Positions 1,069-14,786 of a stretch of DNA of 19,034 nucleotides are shown piece after piece. Position 1 is the stretch's first letter; the number at the start of each line of letters is the position of its first letter. Both the position numbers and the translations under genes were made by a program. Origin of the DNA: a virus (lineage: Duplodnaviria; Heunggongvirae; Uroviricota; Caudoviricetes); IMG/VR virus record IMGVR_UViG_2740892047_000005, one strand, 5' to 3'. The notes under the pieces are model-generated. The model did no database searches, was not told the origin of the DNA, and saw only the letters and a program-made list of their open reading frames with translations.

Positions 1069-1336
1069 AAAAACTCCTGCCCGTAAGCTGGGCTGCTGAA
1101 CAAATGAGGGGTTGCGCAGTATCTGGCGGTGGATGGCCGCCGGTTGTCATAACTAAGCCGCCTCGTTGAAGCGACTAAGGTATGAAATGTTGAGTTGATT
1201 TCAGCTGGTCACACCGACGTTCACGCGTCCGTTTCATCCCTCGCACTCCCCGAAGCCTGCTGAAATTCAAGCTGCGGATCTAAGCGGTCATCGCAACGGT
1301 GAATCAGGTGGTTGCCGTATCGTTGCGTTGTTGCGA

Positions 1337-1385
1337 TATGGTGATAATAGCTATTGCTATTGGTGATATCAATACTTATTGCTAT
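1337..1385 (-). promoter_or_regulatory. Candidate pL promoter with two operators (OL1 1347-1360, OL2 1372-1385)
   Basis: On the minus strand: -35 TTGATA (plus 1367-1372), 17-bp spacer, -10 TATTAT (plus 1344-1349). Two 14-bp sites, ATAGCTATTGCTAT (1347-1360, near-palindrome ATAGC-N4-GCTAT) and ATACTTATTGCTAT (1372-1385), are 25 bp apart and share the motif of the OR sites. Seen directly in sequence; function is inferred. Confidence 0.45.
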
Positions 1386-1510: not shown

Positions 1511-1538
1511 GAAAAGAAAACCCGGCGCGGTTGCCGGG
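1511..1538 (-). terminator. Rho-independent terminator after the lipoprotein gene
   Basis: Hairpin cccggcgcggttgccggg (1521-1538). On the minus strand it is followed by a U-rich tract (complement of gaaaagaaaa, 1511-1520), immediately downstream of the lipoprotein stop at 1547. Confidence 0.5.
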
Positions 1539-1546
1539 TATGATTA

Positions 1547-1927
1547 TCAGTCAGCCCAACCTGATTTCGAGTTTATTTGGGTTTCTGACATTGTGTATTT
1601 CTTAATCGTGTCATCGTCAAAAAGAATAGTAAGTTCTTTTTTCGTACCGTTCGTTCCATTATGGAATAATCCATAGAATGGAATAAAAGTGGTGCCATTA
1701 ACTTTTACTTTTGCAAAGGCGTACTTCCAGATCTCGTTTCCACTGTCAGTATATGAAACAGCATCAGGAGAACCAAAGTAAGATTTAACCTCATTCTTGG
1801 TTGTTTTACCTTCCTGAAGTTTAGACTGGACACTAATTTCAGTTTCATTTTTGAGTTGCTGGTTGCCTGAAGAAGCACACCCAGCCAATAGAGATGCCAT
1901 CATGGCAGCGATTAGGATTTTTCTCAT
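1547..1927 (-). CDS. Lipoprotein (126 aa) with signal peptide and lipobox LLAGC; AT-rich moron between OL and cI (rexAB position)
   Basis: N-terminus MRKILIAAMMASLLAGC has a signal peptidase II lipobox. The mature part is S/T/N/K-rich and reminiscent of small BamE/OmlA-like lipoproteins (not verified). Lies 229 bp downstream of cI on the same strand, with a terminator after it. Confidence 0.8.
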   Translation of the reverse strand: MRKILIAAMMASLLAGCASSGNQQLKNETEISVQSKLQEGKTTKNEVKSYFGSPDAVSYTDSGNEIWKYAFAKVKVNGTTFIPFYGLFHNGTNGTKKELTILFDDDTIKKYTMSETQINSKSGWAD

Positions 1928-2156
1928 TTTATGTTTCCATTCATTATAATCAGAAACATCTTAACATAATGATTCGAAATAAAAACCGCTACGAGATAGG
2001 GGGACATTTTGCTGACAGTAGCAACAAATCTCAGCTAACAACGAGAATATTTACTGAAATATGCAAACAGATTTGGCGTTCTTATAGAGAATTTAGTGCA
2101 ATATCTAATCCGAGTGGTATAAACCTTAACCTTCGCTCCCTTAAGTCGTAGATAAA

Positions 2157-2849
2157 TTAACCATGCTTCCTGTACGTCTGCGGCATGCTTCCAATGACCT
2201 TACCGAATATGAACACCCGGTTCATCTCGTCTTTCTCGATCGGGTCCCACGGCGAGTAGCTCTTGTTATCAGAGATAACCAGCAGCTTATCCTTCATCAT
2301 TTGAAGACGTTTTACATGGGCAGTGTCGTCGTACAGAAACGCATAGATGCCATCACCGTCGAAAGATTTAACAGTGATATCAACGAACAGCAGGTCACCT
2401 GGTTCGATCGTCCCTGACATGCTGTCACCGCGCACGTTAATAATGCGGATATTTTCCGCCTTCCTGCCATCGAACATGTGACGAGCATCGTCAAACGAGT
2501 ACTCAACCGAGCGTAGAACTTCCACAAACTCACGGTTGATGACACCCGGTCCGGCACTGACTTCTATATCAAGAACGTCAATCTTGAAGTATTTTGAATG
2601 GCTGACAGCAGGCTTCCCTGATTGTTGACCGTCATTTCTCATCGGGCCTATGCCTGATGAGAGCCATTCTGTTCGAACACCCAATGCATTAGCTATTTCA
2701 ACAATTTTTGTTGAGCCGCGCGCGTTGCCGCTTGTCAGTCTCCAGATTGTGGGTTGAGCTACGCCAGACGCCTTTGCAAGAGCGCCTTGAGACATTCCAG
2801 ATTGTTCCATCGCTAGGTTTAAGCGATCAGCAAGAGTTTCTTTTTTCAT
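2157..2849 (-). CDS. cI: CI-type prophage repressor (N-terminal HTH + C-terminal S24/LexA-like autopeptidase), 230 aa
   Basis: HTH segment SQGALAKASGVAQPTIWRL. S24 motifs: Ala-Gly cleavage-site-like VSAGPG, catalytic Ser in RGDSMSG, Lys in HVKRL. Start set at ATG 2849 (MKKETLADRL...) because the upstream ATG at 2885 lies inside the operator array. The PRM-like promoter implies a near-leaderless mRNA, as for lambda cI. Confidence 0.88.
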   Translation of the reverse strand: MKKETLADRLNLAMEQSGMSQGALAKASGVAQPTIWRLTSGNARGSTKIVEIANALGVRTEWLSSGIGPMRNDGQQSGKPAVSHSKYFKIDVLDIEVSAGPGVINREFVEVLRSVEYSFDDARHMFDGRKAENIRIINVRGDSMSGTIEPGDLLFVDITVKSFDGDGIYAFLYDDTAHVKRLQMMKDKLLVISDNKSYSPWDPIEKDEMNRVFIFGKVIGSMPQTYRKHG

Positions 2850-2858
2850 AAGTTTTAA

Positions 2859-2928
2859 TTTATACGCTTGCGTATTGATGGTCAAAACACGTTTTGCTAT
2901 TGCTTGGATTAATACGCATTGCTATTAT
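2859..2928. promoter_or_regulatory. OR region: three 14-bp operators at 25-bp spacing with divergent PRM (to cI) and PR (to cro)
   Basis: OR3 ATACGCTTGCGTAT (2862-2875, perfect palindrome), OR2 ACACGTTTTGCTAT (2887-2900), OR1 ATACGCATTGCTAT (2912-2925). PR: -35 TTGCTT (2900-2905), 17-bp spacer, -10 TATTAT (2923-2928), overlapping OR2 and OR1. PRM on minus: -35 TTGACC (rc of 2880-2885), -10 TATAAA (rc of 2859-2864), overlapping OR3. Confidence 0.55.
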
Positions 2929-2959
2929 TCATTCATTTCAATACCAATAGGAATTGATA

Positions 2960-3187
2960 ATGACAAATCAAACCATTCAACTCGCAATCAGTATTACAGG
3001 TAGTCAAAAACGACTGGCAGATCTATGCGGTGTAGCCCAACCCACAGTTTGGCGTTGGCTACACGGTGGCGGAATTGATGCCCGCTATGTAATGAAAATT
3101 GTCTCAGCCACTGGTGGAAAGATTAAACCAGCAGATATTCGTCCCGACCTCGCACCATTGTTTAACGCGAGTAATTCTGCCGCCTAA
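2960..3187 (+). CDS. cro: Cro-like HTH regulator (YdaS/DUF1019-like), 75 aa
   Basis: ORF track 2954..3187; preferred start is ATG 2960 (MTNQTIQLAISITGSQKRLADLCGVAQPTVWRWL...) with SD TAGGA at 2948-2952. Divergent from cI across the operator array. HTH resembles YdaS-type Cro analogues (from memory). Confidence 0.8.
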   Translation: MTNQTIQLAISITGSQKRLADLCGVAQPTVWRWLHGGGIDARYVMKIVSATGGKIKPADIRPDLAPLFNASNSAA

Positions 3188-5818: not shown

Positions 5819-6796
5819 TTAAATTGCAGGATCTTTTCCAACGGCAAGGAAAGGTTCTTGGTCTAGTGCAGTAAACGAAGCTTCGTTATTAAGCAAACGA
5901 ATAAAATATAATTTTTGTCTTTTGGTGGATAACTCAATTAACCCTGCTTGATTTATAATTATATTTCTTCCTAATATTGGGAAGTTTTGTATTAAACGCT
6001 GAATGTTAGCGATGGTTATAGTTCCGCTTTTTATTAGAGAACTGTTTGCTGTTGTAGCTAGTTTACGCATAAAATTTCTATTTTTATGCATATCATCAAA
6101 TATACCAAGTGGGTTTTGCAAGTTAGAAGTATCTAGGATATTCAATCCAATTATATGCGGTGTCGCTGTTGCTGCTAAATTATTAATTATTTGCTCGAGT
6201 CCATATACTCGCTCTAATAAGTTAATGTTTAAAGCATAGTATTTATTATTAAAATAAAAGAAATCAACATTTCCGTTTATATCAATACTGTCATGGTTAA
6301 CTTCGTCTAGTGTTCGTCCATTGGCAGAGAAATAGGATAGTCTTGTTTTTTTATGCAAAGATATTGGGTATTTATGTTGATAAACTACAACTCCATTACC
6401 TTGCCCATCGCAGAGATAGTATACAATTCCTTTAACAGAAGATAAGTCTTGCTGTTTGAAATCAAAATCAGGAGGGGTGTTATTAACTCCGAAATTAAGT
6501 ACATCTGGCATTTTTGCTAGAGCATCTGGGAGATGGTTTATTACATTATAATCATATTCGTAAACTTGTTTATCTCTATTTAGAAGGGAGGATACCAACG
6601 GCAAAAAGTTTTGACCAGCATTAGGGGCGATAACATCACGTTTAAGTGATTTGCTAAAAGATTGGGTTAATTTTTTTTCTGCACCAGGTTCTAATGCTAC
6701 TCGGTATATTTGTGTTATCCCTTTGTGTTCTGCAACGAAAAAGGCTTCACCAGAGATGTTGGCAGAATTTAAGATGTTATCTATTGCTGTAAACAT
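5819..6796 (-). CDS. Hypothetical 325-aa soluble protein, second gene of the AT-rich two-gene cassette; candidate defence effector (possibly KwaB/DUF4868-like, unverified)
   Basis: Intact ORF with RBS GAGGG 4 nt before ATG 6796. Starts 15 bp after the stop of the upstream membrane-protein gene on the same strand. No Walker A, no GS...DxD nucleotidyltransferase motif and no obvious nuclease motif seen by eye. N/I/L/K-rich, consistent with low-GC origin. Confidence 0.8.
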   Translation of the reverse strand: MFTAIDNILNSANISGEAFFVAEHKGITQIYRVALEPGAEKKLTQSFSKSLKRDVIAPNAGQNFLPLVSSLLNRDKQVYEYDYNVINHLPDALAKMPDVLNFGVNNTPPDFDFKQQDLSSVKGIVYYLCDGQGNGVVVYQHKYPISLHKKTRLSYFSANGRTLDEVNHDSIDINGNVDFFYFNNKYYALNINLLERVYGLEQIINNLAATATPHIIGLNILDTSNLQNPLGIFDDMHKNRNFMRKLATTANSSLIKSGTITIANIQRLIQNFPILGRNIIINQAGLIELSTKRQKLYFIRLLNNEASFTALDQEPFLAVGKDPAI

Positions 6797-6811
6797 AATG
6801 CCCTCATTATA

Positions 6812-7411
6812 TTAAACAATCTTTGCGAGACAAGTGTCATTATCTATTTTTATATATTTTATAGTGCTTTTATTATTTATTTCTCCACGACATATTATCA
6901 CAAATTCTTTTTTTCCGCGGTCGTTAATATTCGCTCTAAAAATTCTGAACCCTAATAGTGCAAGTGACGGATTTGAATAAAATCGATTTGTTTTAACATA
7001 AATCATTCCGATTGCAATTATCATTATTAATAGATTCAACATTGTTCGTTTGCTATTTACATCAGTAAAGACTAGTGGCATGACATAAGTTGTCAGGAAC
7101 TCTAAATGTTCATGGCTCTCGTTTTTTACGTCGGAAACAGTACATGCGACAGACCAACCAGAGTTAAATGATAAAAACAAATATAAAAATATAAAAAAAC
7201 CTGCCACCATCATTATAAAACTAAATAAAAAAACTATATTTTTGGGTGTGATTTTTGAAATGAATATAGCAAAGTCTTTATTGTTATAAGTTGAAATTAT
7301 AGTAAATATATTTTTATCATATGACATTATAAATAGAGAAACAAATAATAGCCATAGAGATAATATATATAGCGCATACTTTAAAGCTGTTCTATTTTTC
7401 ATGTTTTTCAT
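6812..7411 (-). CDS. Predicted multi-pass inner-membrane protein (about 4 TM helices), first gene of the AT-rich cassette; candidate sensor/membrane component (possibly KwaA-like, unverified)
   Basis: Hydrophobic segments ALKYALYILSLWLLFVSLFIMSY, IVFLFSFIMMVAGFFIFLYLFLSF, LEFLTTYVMPLVF, MLNLLIMIIAIGMIYV, then a ~55-aa charged C-terminal tail. Start uncertain: ATG 7411 (MKNMKNRT...), ATG 7402 or GTG 7426 (ORF track). Confidence 0.75.
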   Translation of the reverse strand: MKNMKNRTALKYALYILSLWLLFVSLFIMSYDKNIFTIISTYNNKDFAIFISKITPKNIVFLFSFIMMVAGFFIFLYLFLSFNSGWSVACTVSDVKNESHEHLEFLTTYVMPLVFTDVNSKRTMLNLLIMIIAIGMIYVKTNRFYSNPSLALLGFRIFRANINDRGKKEFVIICRGEINNKSTIKYIKIDNDTCLAKIV

Positions 7412-8362
7412 CTCTTGGGGAAACACCGTTTTGATACCGTTGCCAGCGAATATAACACTTTAATTAATTACGGTAAGTAACTTATAACAGTCAATAGATG
7501 TAAATAGAGATGGTGTGGAATCATTACTTGATGCTTTGGCACGCTACCGCCACAAACTCGTTGTGGTGAGTCTGTGGTATGTAGTCAAAACATAGATTTG
7601 CTGTTGTAATGTTACACCTGCATGGGTAACAAAATCTAGTGCGATACACATAGCCACTGACCATCTATACTGGTTTAATATACAGCATTTTATGACGATT
7701 CTCAATTATGAAACTAACTATTTTACAACCAGTTATGGATATCTATGCTTTTATGTACTAAAAATTCTTTAGTTACAGATGTATTGATGACGAGAAATTG
7801 CTAAAGCAAGATGAGTAAGGAACTAAATCAATAAAGTGGGGGCGGGGGGAGTTCGAGTGGCTAGGAGCATAGCGCTTGATTACTTTTGGTGGTTGAAAAA
7901 TGTTCGGTTGGGTGTCGCTAGGTGACTAATAGCTAAATTGGGAGATATACATATATAATATGAAATAAATCCCCACTTAATGCTTGTGAAATATTTATGT
8001 GACAAGCGGGTGTTCTTATTGATATTAAAATTCAATAACAGTGAGTTTTTATTCTTTTCTAAGTTTTGTAAATTGTTCTCACAGAGAAGGTTTAATTGTA
8101 TGTGCCTATATTTTTTTCTAGTGAATATAATGTCGGAATATATTAATATTGGCATATTCAGCAATGACTTCAAATATTCTTGATTTTCGATAATCAACTC
8201 GCCATAATCTCGTTGCTGTCGGCCTGAACATCCGGCGGTGGGGTTGCGCTAAACGGGGACGTTTATGCGCACACACAATCCAAACTCTCTTCTCCCTTCA
8301 CAGATGCAGAAATGCACCTGCGATTTTTTGTATTCTGCGTTTTACCTCTACGGAGGTGAAGC

Positions 8363-10425: not shown

Positions 10426-11523
10426 TTAGAACTGGTAAACCAGACCTACAGCAACGATGTCATCAGTGCTTACACCGAGTGCTTTAGTGAAGTCATTTTT
10501 GTCAAGCAGGTTGATTTTGTAATCAACGAAAGTAGACATATTTTTGTTGAAGTAATAGGTTGCACCTACATCAACATATTTGACTAAGTCCTGATCGCCC
10601 CATACTCCAAGATCCTTACCTTTAGATTGCAGGTAAGCAACGGACGGACGCAGACCGAAATCGAACTGATATTGTGCAACAGCTTCGAAGTTTTGAGCTT
10701 TATTAGCAACGAAGTGATCAGCAAATACAGTCATATTCTGGGTTTCAGAATAGGTAGTGGCCAGGTAAATGTTGTTAGCGTCATATTTCAGACCTGCGGC
10801 CCAAACTTCTGCATTTTTACCGGAAGCAAATACTTCAGGAAGAACTTTCCCTGCATTAACTTGAGTGTCGGTACGATCAGATTTTGCATAAGTTGCACCG
10901 ATACCGAATCCTTCGTATTCATAGGTAGCAGAGAAACCGAAGCCATCACCGTTACCTTCGGTGTAGTTATCGAAATCGCTACGATCGTTTTTGCCTTGGT
11001 ACTGAGCAGCAAAGTTCAGACCATCAACCAGGCCAAAGAAGTCGTTGTTACGATAGGTTGCAACACCAGTGGTGCGACCAGTCATGAACACATCTGTTTG
11101 GGTCCAGGTATCGCCACCGAATTCTGGCAGAACGTCAGTCCACGCACCGATGTCGTATGCTACACCGTAGTTACGGCCGTAATCGATGGAGCCGTAGTCA
11201 CCGAATTTCAGGCCAGCGAAGGCAAGACGGGTTTTATCTTTGGAGGAACCTTGAGATTCAGCGCGGTTGCCTTTGAATTCATATTCCCACTGACCGAAAC
11301 CAGTCAGTTGATCGTTGATTTGGGTTTCACCTTTGAAGCCAAGACGGGCATAAGTAGTATCACCATCATCTGCATCATTAGAGGAGAAGTAGTGCTTAGC
11401 ATTAACTTTCCCGTACAGATCCAGCTTGTTACTGTCTTTATTATAAATTTCAGCTGCCTGAGCAGACATCGCCATCAGTACTGATGCAGCTACAGCAGAA
11501 ATTGCCACTGTTAATTTTTTCAT
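10426..11523 (-). CDS. nmpC: Outer-membrane general porin of the OmpC/OmpF/NmpC family, 365 aa, intact
   Basis: Signal peptide [23 protein letters not shown], then [24 protein letters not shown]... and C-terminal ...VAVGLVYQF (terminal Phe typical of beta-barrel OMPs). Convergent to Q, between Q and the lysis cassette, as nmpC is in DLP12. Confidence 0.93.
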
Positions 11524-13448: not shown

Positions 13449-13970
13449 ATGAATATCGTGCCACTTAATTACAAAGGTGAAATTGTCAGTTTCAACACTG
13501 ATGGTTGGATCAACGTCACAGGTGTTGCTGAGAGATTTGGGAAACGCATTGATAACTGGATGCGTTTGGCAGAAACGCTTGAATACGTTCGTGCTTTAGA
13601 CGAAGCGTTGACCGGGAAAGAATCTCAAATTTTACATCCCTCACAATCGAGGTATGTAAAAACCAGCAAGGCACGAAAGGACAGGGGTGGTGGTACGTGG
13701 CTACATCCAAAACTTTCAGTTGCATTTGCCCGTTGGTGTGATGCTCGTTTTGCTGTGTGGTGCGACCTGCACATTGATAGTCTGCTTCGCGGTGAACTGA
13801 CTGAGCAGCAGAAATATGAGCAAGCATGTCGCATTCGCGATGACCGGAAATCAAAAGCCAGCAATGGGGCAAGAGAGATGGCTCGCTGGCGATGGGATAA
13901 GCCGGTTATTGAAGCAAATGTTGAGTACTGGCGCGAGCAACTGCAGTTGACTCTCGATATCGCGTGCTGA
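13449..13970 (+). CDS. KilA-N domain protein (antirepressor-like N-terminal DNA-binding domain), 173 aa
   Basis: N-terminal region NYKGEIVSFNTDGWINVTGVAERFGKRIDNWMRL...WLHPKLSVAFARWCD fits the KilA-N/APSES-like pattern as I recall it; not verified by HMM. Confidence 0.7.
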   Translation: MNIVPLNYKGEIVSFNTDGWINVTGVAERFGKRIDNWMRLAETLEYVRALDEALTGKESQILHPSQSRYVKTSKARKDRGGGTWLHPKLSVAFARWCDARFAVWCDLHIDSLLRGELTEQQKYEQACRIRDDRKSKASNGAREMARWRWDKPVIEANVEYWREQLQLTLDIAC

Positions 13971-14319: not shown

Positions 14320-14730
14320 TTAGTGCGGAAATATTTGTGTAGTGTTCTGAATGTTCTCAGTAAAGAGTAATGAATTATCAAAGGTATAGTAATACCTTTT
14401 GTTTTCGTGGATATTTGTAATCCATCTGAAAACCCCTGCTGTAGCAAGATTTTTTCTGTATTCGTAAAATGATAACTCTCCTGATTTGAATCCTTTTAAG
14501 GTGGCTTCTATAAGGCATTTATTTTTTGAAAATCTTACATTTACAACCTTACCCTGTCCTTTTATTAAAACCGTATTATCGTTTTCAAGAACAAGATGAA
14601 TATTCTCTGTGGCTAAATAGTAAATGTAATGTGAGACATTGTGACGTTTTAGTTCAGAATAAAACCAGTGATAGTTTAAATTATTTCGCACTTTATCGAA
14701 TATTTGTTTAAAAATGGCAACCTGAGCCAT
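14320..14730 (-). CDS. ybcV: YbcV-like protein (DUF1398 family), 136 aa, AT-rich
   Basis: From ATG 14730 (SD GGAAGG 7 nt upstream): [58 protein letters not shown]... matches DLP12 YbcV as I recall it. ORF track starts 5 codons earlier at 14745, with no SD. Confidence 0.75.
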
Positions 14731-14786
14731 TGTAGTACCTTCCATGTGATATGAGGGGCGTAGTCTGCACGATTATCTAAATTGCT

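Follow-up and report, generated by a model that had tools for sequence, protein, structure and literature searches.

A predicted outer-membrane lipoprotein with a divergent BamE fold in the cI-OL cargo slot of a lambda-like prophage: a candidate phage-exclusion factor

A lambda-like prophage sequence of 19,034 nucleotides (IMG/VR record IMGVR_UViG_2740892047_000005, class Caudoviricetes; this whole stretch is referred to below as the window) carries, between its cI-type repressor gene and the left operator OL, a small gene for a lipoprotein. A first description made from the sequence alone (the original prediction) had presented it as an AT-rich, 126-residue lipoprotein gene with its own terminator, on the cI strand and in the position where phage lambda carries rexAB, and had proposed that it encodes a lysogen-expressed exclusion or conversion factor. 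The anatomical part of that description agrees in full with the features given here, and the gene is a self-contained accessory cassette, or moron, in the cI-OL cargo slot. The cassette and its upstream neighbour consist of the following.

1547-1927, minus strand: lipoprotein gene, 126 amino acids, ATG start, TGA stop
1877-1927, minus strand: signal peptide (residues 1-16) and lipobox LAGC, with the codon of the lipidated Cys17 at 1879-1877
1511-1539, minus strand: intrinsic terminator of the cassette, a 7-bp GC-rich stem (1539-1520) followed by TTTTCTTTT
2157-2885, minus strand: cI-type repressor gene, identified by its helix-turn-helix and Peptidase_S24 domains (Pfam), by PHROG 4 and by the annotation of the related phage PhiR26_1

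The N-terminus of the lipoprotein reads MRKILIAAMMASLLAGC followed by ASSGNQ..., with a basic start, a hydrophobic core and the lipobox L-A-G-C, which was located by a regular-expression match at residues 14-17 and whose Cys17 is near-invariant in a 56-sequence alignment of the family. In E. coli, the residue that follows the lipidated cysteine (position +2) governs the sorting of lipoproteins by the Lol system. In this protein Cys17 is followed by Ala (+2) and Ser (+3), Asp is absent at +2, and the established +2 rule therefore predicts a lipoprotein destined for the outer membrane through Lol sorting. After processing, about 110 residues (~12.2 kDa) would remain, comprising a BamE-like domain with a family-specific insertion. 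The terminator starts seven bases past the stop codon, folds with a free energy (dG) of -14.1 kcal/mol (z = -3.3; 0 of 200 shuffled sequences fold as well) and is functionally equivalent to lambda tIMM.

Four further features mark the surroundings of this cassette.

1338-1433: OL operator cluster with a pL-like promoter, whose -35 to -10 elements lie at 1372-1344 on the minus strand (promoter scan)
2954-3187: cro/YdaS-like gene, divergent from cI
862-1068: kil, leftward of pL
490-786: gam, leftward of pL

Specifically, a 50-nucleotide block at 1338-1387 is repeated with 74% identity at 2878-2927, beside cro, and has inverted matches to 2940-2959. These repeated blocks are the OL and OR operator clusters, and since they flank the lipoprotein gene, it lies inside the immunity region, at the place of lambda rexAB. 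The repressor gene, which probably starts at 2849 rather than at 2885, is upstream of it on the same strand. The guanine-plus-cytosine (GC) content is 38.3% in the lipoprotein gene and 34.1% in the spacer between it and cI, against 47.3% in cI, 50.8% in gam-kil and 46.2% over the whole window.

The open reading frame (ORF) at 1547-1927 is a genuine, constrained gene and not a chance ORF, because it matches PHROG 3135 (function unknown) from end to end (E = 2e-47), has hundreds of homologues and evolves under strong constraint: the nonsynonymous divergence (dN) from diverged alleles is 0.11-0.15 at saturated synonymous divergence (dS), and dN/dS is ~0.06 where dS could be computed. Those hundreds of homologues, at 69-98% identity, are found in Escherichia, Citrobacter, Enterobacter, Cronobacter, Leclercia, Kluyvera and Serratia, while more distant ones (25-50% identity) exist in Klebsiella, Tatumella, Pantoea and Brenneria and also in the marine Oceanisphaera, Chromohalobacter and Alteromonas phage P24. 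A phmmer search of 1.84 billion representatives of 50%-identity clusters returned 1,372 matches at E <= 1e-3 and 321 at E <= 1e-10, mainly lipoproteins of 125-135 residues. A second search seeded with an alignment mostly re-found close homologues, and the diversity was obtained by seeding with the distant phage homologues.

At 99.5% identity, the segment in the window matches Escherichia phage PhiR26_1, a relative of lambda in which the gene, annotated as a 'putative lipoprotein', occupies the same slot. Of 5,426 complete E. coli genomes, 69 have the 761-nucleotide segment (the gene with its two flanks) in full. By comparison, 13 other lambdoid phages match only the 110-140 nucleotides on the OL side (~87-92% identity), without the lipoprotein gene. 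The Salmonella phages S107, S135 and S137 have an 82% homologue between cI and N, behind two other genes, and Citrobacter Rac-like prophages have a 77% homologue after cI and a gene for a 302-residue protein. Three hallmarks of a moron in the sense of Juhala and Hendrix are found: presence or absence between otherwise adjacent genes, deviant base composition and a terminator of its own. Indeed, it is the GC content of 38%, against ~51% in gam-kil, together with the 13 related phages without the gene, that identifies the cassette as accessory.

For a wider view, the window, 80 IMG/VR loci and other fetched loci were pooled into 86 distinct contexts from Enterobacterales prophages, many of the carriers being read over ~8 kb only. 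These contexts define two cargo hot spots. In 60 of them the lipoprotein gene is part of the immunity region and follows, on the same strand, a repressor gene belonging to one of four unrelated clusters; the gap between repressor and lipoprotein gene is ~45 nucleotides (16 contexts), 70-230 nucleotides, or as much as 1.5 kb where one or two other cargo genes intervene. Another 23 contexts place the gene in the tail module, just upstream of the tape-measure gene, in the order major tail protein, DUF6246/PHROG 791 gene, variable cargo and tape measure. These tail loci (L003, L059-L091 and L095-L098) come from Klebsiella, Enterobacter, Serratia and Tatumella prophages. The remaining three contexts were classed as 'other' and include L005 (Lambdavirus PDP110P1), where the gene is in the tail module, and L006, where it follows a different CI-type repressor. 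Alleles from the immunity slot and the tail slot share up to 90% of their amino acids and only 74-78% of their nucleotides. Such high protein identity and strong constraint in the face of nucleotide divergence point to old lineages in which the protein has remained nearly unchanged, and hence to a conserved target.

Around the gene, the tail hot spot holds Rha/Ant antirepressors, an Arc protein, a Bro-N protein, a protein with a SocA/Panacea domain and a YafO toxin, and there are also small proteins which, by direct reading of their sequences, have hydrophobic, signal-peptide-like N-termini. Ahead of the lipoprotein gene, many tail-slot loci have a leader, ATCCCTGTTAGGAT...GGGAT-ATG, and over-extended ORFs of neighbouring cargo share a 'GDRD-M' junction, which suggests a similar leader there. 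The tail slot raises the possibility that the protein serves the lytic cycle of the phage itself, in tail assembly, tape-measure handling or lysis. The 23 contexts between tail chaperone-like and tape-measure genes, co-directional with the late operon, would fit such a role, but tails are assembled in the cytoplasm and the lipoprotein is exported, most close relatives of any given carrier do not have the gene, and its companions in the tail slot are obviously non-structural cargo. Moreover, in the window it is an immunity-region gene transcribed away from the lytic operons, and spanin genes are found elsewhere in the near-identical PhiR26_1. A lytic role is thus very improbable, the least probable of the explanations weighed here.

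The original prediction had left the nature of the mature domain to fold and profile searches, and these identify a divergent BamE fold. The Pfam BamE model (PF04355, SmpA/OmlA) matches the window protein at 22.5 bits (E = 1e-4), under the gathering threshold of 23.2, and its relatives score 17-34 bits, on either side of the cut-off; the family is therefore a peripheral subfamily of the PF04355 domain family. A profile of the family retrieves BamE chains from the PDB at E ~0.01, and hhalign aligns it to E. coli BamE with 92.8% probability (E = 4e-7), a score to be read with caution, as the BamE sequence used was checked only in part, against stretches of the PDB chains. An AlphaFold2 model built from the 56-sequence alignment has a mean pLDDT (predicted local distance difference test) of 82, shows the two helices and three strands of the BamE fold and retrieves BamE chains at ranks 1-7 in Foldseek. 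Identity to BamE is 20-22%, and the lipoprotein family has a C-terminal strand extension beyond BamE. Its most distinctive element is the following.

1652-1696, minus strand: family signature insertion, residues 78-92, GTTFIPFYGLFHNGT, unaligned to BamE in hhalign

Relative to BamE the insertion amounts to 14 residues, GTTFIPFYGLFHNG, which are aromatic and hydrophobic and include TFIPFYGLF. Most of the invariant positions of the family are located here (F81, I82, P83, G86, F88 and G91 are invariant or near-invariant), and the 10-residue blocks that cover it have pLDDT values of 77 and 66, the lowest in the core of the model. The insertion is a candidate binding surface. The same fold is used for protein binding in BamE, in BLIP and in BtiO, an immunity protein of the type VI secretion system (T6SS), and the lipoprotein is accordingly a divergent member of the BamE/BLIP-like fold class of protein-binding modules. 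Taken together, the reality of the gene, its anatomy, fold and mobility and the purifying selection on it can be held with very high confidence.

Automated annotation has gone further than this. Specifically, the RefSeq name assigned by PGAP to the E. coli hits (H22-H51) is 'outer membrane protein assembly factor BamE', and in two of the listed genomes it is 'BamD'. Identity as the BamE subunit of the beta-barrel assembly machinery (BAM) was considered and rejected: the Pfam score is below the cut-off and the location is that of prophage cargo. The lipoprotein is not a BAM subunit, because no NCBIfam model named BamE is among its matches at E <= 1 and because every enterobacterial context read is a prophage cargo slot, never the housekeeping bamE locus. 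Both RefSeq names are over-specific and misleading, and they would mislead pangenome and essentiality analyses.

A different matter is whether the lipoprotein might mimic BamE, docking on BAM (at POTRA5 of BamA, or at BamD) instead of or alongside BamE and thereby altering outer-membrane protein (OMP) assembly or BamA conformation. Such a mimic could block BamA-dependent phages or contact-dependent inhibition, or could favour prophage OMPs (a porin, Lom, an omptin). BamE is the top structural match and is detectable as a homologue by hhalign, the predicted topology is like that of BamE (an outer-membrane lipoprotein facing the periplasm), the extreme conservation across genera fits a conserved machine as target, and OMP cargo is at hand, as the window encodes a porin and the near-identical PhiR26_1 a porin, Lom, Bor and an omptin. 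However, only 20-22% of residues are shared with BamE, conservation in the family peaks in an insertion that is absent from BamE, the same fold occurs in BLIP, BtiO and OsmE, which are unrelated to BAM, and the OMP cargo of many carriers was assessed over the ~8 kb mentioned above. BamE mimicry is therefore improbable. The same low probability attaches to the related idea that the aromatic loop re-tunes BAM or another conserved outer-membrane machine, making lysogens refractory or favouring the prophage's own OMPs. If it were true, mimicry would represent a new viral manipulation of outer-membrane biogenesis and the first superinfection-exclusion factor with a BamE fold, and a contact with BAM would provide a natural probe of an antibiotic target.

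The resemblance to BLIP and BtiO brings in another alternative, namely that the lipoprotein is an orphan immunity or inhibitor protein directed against a periplasmic toxin or enzyme, such as a T6SS effector, a bacteriocin or a lysin. But the likeness is at the level of the fold only, and none of the 86 contexts has a cognate toxin gene next to it, so this alternative is slightly less probable still than BamE mimicry.

Whatever the protein does, it is predicted to do so in the lysogen, and the evidence for this is found in the spacer between cI and the lipoprotein gene, where three features were recognised.

1933-1957, minus strand: conserved leader GTTTCTG...TGGAAAC, with a nearly palindromic centre, GATTATAATG (GATTGCAATC in relatives)
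1958-1966, minus strand: extended -10-like motif TGTTAAGAT, 31 nucleotides upstream of the ATG, invariant in five divergent contexts
1977-2003, minus strand: degenerate terminator remnant, CCCCTATCTCGTAGCGGTTTTTATTT aligned against GCCACCGTGCCGGGTTTTTATTT, non-folding

Scanning and folding of 1928-2156 detect no terminator between cI and the lipoprotein gene (the spacer folds at z = -0.5). In Salmonella and Citrobacter prophages, a good terminator is located ~60 nucleotides upstream of the lipoprotein ATG; its remnant at 2003-1977 in the window no longer folds, so that transcripts of cI can read through into the lipoprotein gene, and decay of the terminator in the E. coli version would couple this gene to cI transcription. 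The 16 contexts with a ~45-nucleotide gap have a strong Shine-Dalgarno sequence (AAGGAAA) and, judged by this arrangement, are operonic with cI. Because there is no intervening terminator and the spacing in these relatives is operonic, the simplest expectation is read-through from pRM or pRE, as with lambda rexAB. The interval between cI and N has been described as a hot spot for accessory and defence genes transcribed in lysogens, rexAB and bstA among them, and in phage BTP1 the cI promoter drives bstA under each of the 17 conditions tested (PMC7067206).

In addition, the gene may have a promoter of its own at the extended -10-like motif TGnTAAGAT, which would be active in the lysogen and for which a transcription start near 1951-1950 is predicted; a TGnTARRAT motif is present in 58 of the 86 contexts. 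A leader of ~35-45 nucleotides travels with the gene across unrelated upstream contexts (L002, L006, L041, L046, L048, L049, L055, L078 and others). It is 81-85% identical (81% outside the search motif), in contrast to 46% at third codon positions, and far upstream the identity falls to the random level, a pattern which indicates that the leader is under purifying selection. In 16 of 18 leader variants a weak hairpin can be drawn that pairs UUUCY with the Shine-Dalgarno-like GGA(AA), with dG of -3 to -11 kcal/mol. These folds were computed per sequence; the alignment of the 18 variants is poorly gapped, and the covariation is anecdotal. The hairpin might be thermometer-like, or it might insulate translation from read-through transcripts. 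As a speculation, a start ~7 nucleotides after the -10 would leave the 5′ arm in read-through transcripts only, thus insulating translation.

Overall, expression of the lipoprotein gene in the lysogen is likely, and the corresponding part of the original prediction gains weight from the missing terminator after cI, the 16 operonic contexts and the conserved leader. Beyond what that prediction contained are the BamE fold with its signature insertion, the two hot spots, the promoter-like leader and the decayed upstream terminator. An 85-residue ORF at 1894-2151 on the plus strand, antisense to the spacer and overlapping the start of the lipoprotein gene, was also considered; it is probably no gene, as it recurs only in loci with an identical spacer (cluster 6).

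Any account of function has to accommodate a predicted outer-membrane lipoprotein with a protein-binding fold, its conservation across genera, slots shared with defence, toxin-antitoxin and regulatory genes, and presence or absence among phages. In the favoured account the protein probably modifies the envelope of its carrier cell, as follows. In the lysogen, the gene would be transcribed by read-through from the cI promoter, probably also from its own putative extended -10 promoter, and transcription would end at the cassette's own terminator just before OL. The product would be exported and lipidated at Cys17, and its 110-residue periplasmic domain, a divergent BamE fold, would present the invariant aromatic loop TFIPFYGLF. 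This loop would clamp a highly conserved envelope component from the periplasmic side, possibly the BAM complex, a receptor in the outer membrane, or the tail or tape-measure apparatus of an incoming phage. By analogy with Cor, Llp and the Lpp proteins of mEp phages, binding could then protect the lysogen from superinfecting phages at adsorption or at DNA entry. As a whole, this explanation (a moron cassette between cI and OL that encodes a lysogen-expressed, phage-excluding envelope lipoprotein) is the best available and is held tentatively, at somewhat less than an even chance; anti-phage exclusion as the function of the protein, considered separately, is about as tentative or slightly more so.

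Several observations weigh against the account. At the level of expression, a sigma-70 scan finds no minus-strand promoter in the spacer and there is no recognisable -35 element, so the promoter call is motif-based; the leader hairpin is weak, and the near-palindrome could equally be a DNA palindrome or protein operator. At the level of homology, no kinship with Cor was found (the PHROG Cor match has E = 0.028 and covers the signal peptide only), tblastn with the lipoprotein gives no match in mEp021, Llp is not among the PDB fold matches listed, and PADLOC-DB 2.0 yields only a spurious GajA match (E = 0.0046, 13 bits). The 1,372 family representatives and the Chromohalobacter homologue, which is at a chromosomal locus that does not look like a prophage, beside DUF6694 and EVE-HNH genes, indicate that the ancestral function may have been a housekeeping one in the envelope. 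Finally, the gene is linked to cI or to the tape measure, and its carriers have different tails, which speaks against a receptor-specific blocker. In the receptor blockers Cor and Llp, genetic linkage is to the gene for receptor binding. Because of the linkage to cI or the tape measure and the varied tails, a target common to many phages or hosts (BAM, a general porin, OmpA or a step of tape-measure entry) fits better. The literature search found no study of the family, of BamE-like or SmpA/OmlA phage lipoproteins or of immunity-region lipoproteins, and the lipoprotein goes unmentioned in a preprint that works with the PhiR phage panel.

The principal competitor of phage exclusion is a conversion factor that benefits the host, conferring serum or complement resistance as Bor does, or tolerance of osmotic or envelope stress as OsmE does. 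Prophage outer-membrane lipoproteins with such roles exist, for instance Bor (PMC7067206), numerous gut and clinical Enterobacterales have the gene, and translation could become condition-dependent through the weak hairpin, which sequesters the Shine-Dalgarno sequence. Yet virulence genes are rarer in both slots than regulatory, toxin-antitoxin and defence cargo, the lipoprotein has no similarity to Bor, and the marine homologues (in Alteromonas phage P24, Oceanisphaera and Chromohalobacter) make virulence in an animal host unlikely there. A fitness or virulence role is thus unlikely, but it is the most credible of the alternatives to phage exclusion.

The rest of the window contains other cargo. 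A complete Kiwa defence system at 5819-7426 (minus strand) consists of KwaB (5819-6796; PADLOC E = 7e-149, with a Pfam KwaB match) and KwaA (6812-7426; E = 5e-88). It is situated downstream of O/P-type replication genes, at a position where PhiR26_1 has PD-lambda-1, and the occurrence of these two systems at one position marks a hot spot of defence swapping. A general porin of the prophage at 10426-11523 (minus strand; Pfam Porin_1, E = 1e-156) is a further envelope-modifying gene, and its equivalent in PhiR26_1 is annotated as OmpD, between Q and the lysis genes. Between the lysis and terminase genes, a protein with a KilA-N domain (13449-13970, plus strand) and a DUF1398 protein (14320-14745, minus strand) are likely cargo. 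No N-like antiterminator ORF is present at 1069-1343 (minus strand), from the pL-like promoter to kil, and none is annotated in PhiR26_1. An antitermination RNA like put of HK022 was considered for this stretch and rejected, as an Rfam search of the whole window at the gathering threshold has no match and the fold of 1150-1340 is at z = -0.5 relative to shuffles.

Genes that a prophage carries as cargo in its repressor operon are active in each cell of a lysogen, and time and again they have proved to serve anti-phage defence or virulence. The family described here is an uncharacterised prophage accessory outer-membrane lipoprotein, in itself a known kind of element, for which an exclusion or conversion function is plausible by analogy. 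It has kept ~80-90% amino-acid identity at saturated synonymous divergence in two independent cargo hot spots, and it is spread over Escherichia, Salmonella, Citrobacter, Enterobacter, Klebsiella, Serratia and further genera. If phage exclusion is its function, the few exclusion lipoproteins would gain a new fold and probably also a new target, with a bearing on host range in phage therapy.

Comparison with known systems separates position from mechanism. In contrast to BamE, which is encoded at the chromosomal bamE locus, the lipoprotein gene is found in mobile prophage cargo slots. With rexAB of lambda, sieB of P22 and bstA of BTP1 it shares a location downstream of and co-directional with the repressor, and a terminator before OL/pL. 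These are, however, cytoplasmic or inner-membrane abortive-infection systems with no kinship to it in sequence or fold. Pseudomonas phages B3 and PP9W2 have uncharacterised lipoproteins of the SmpA/OmlA fold (Foldseek BFVD probability 0.99-1.0) with 11-19% identity to the window lipoprotein. Ltp of Streptococcus phage TP-J34 is built of helical repeats and differs further in its Gram-positive host and its surface-exposed position; it is not among the structural matches listed. Ltp is a phage lipoprotein mediating superinfection exclusion (PMC3952083).

Closest in kind are Cor (phi80, N15 and HK022), Llp (T5) and Lpp021 and Lpp010 (mEpimmI phages), which, like the window protein, are phage lipoproteins predicted to reside in the inner leaflet of the outer membrane. 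The genes of Lpp021 and Lpp010 belong to the structural gene cluster; supplied in trans, these two proteins exclude phages that depend on OmpA or LamB, lambda among them (PMC11893012). Llp is reported in a preprint to bind FhuA from the inner leaflet of the outer membrane (10.64898/2026.03.26.714494). The mEpimmI Lpp proteins were considered as homologues and rejected, given the missing tblastn match in mEp021, whose gp81 has 72 residues and is encoded near J. More generally, Cor, Llp and the mEp Lpp proteins are ~60-80 residues long (~55-60 when mature) and are encoded near receptor-binding or tail-fibre genes, whereas the window lipoprotein is twice as large, with a mature part of 110 residues and a BamE fold, and its family is linked to cI or to the tape measure and not to J or fibre genes.

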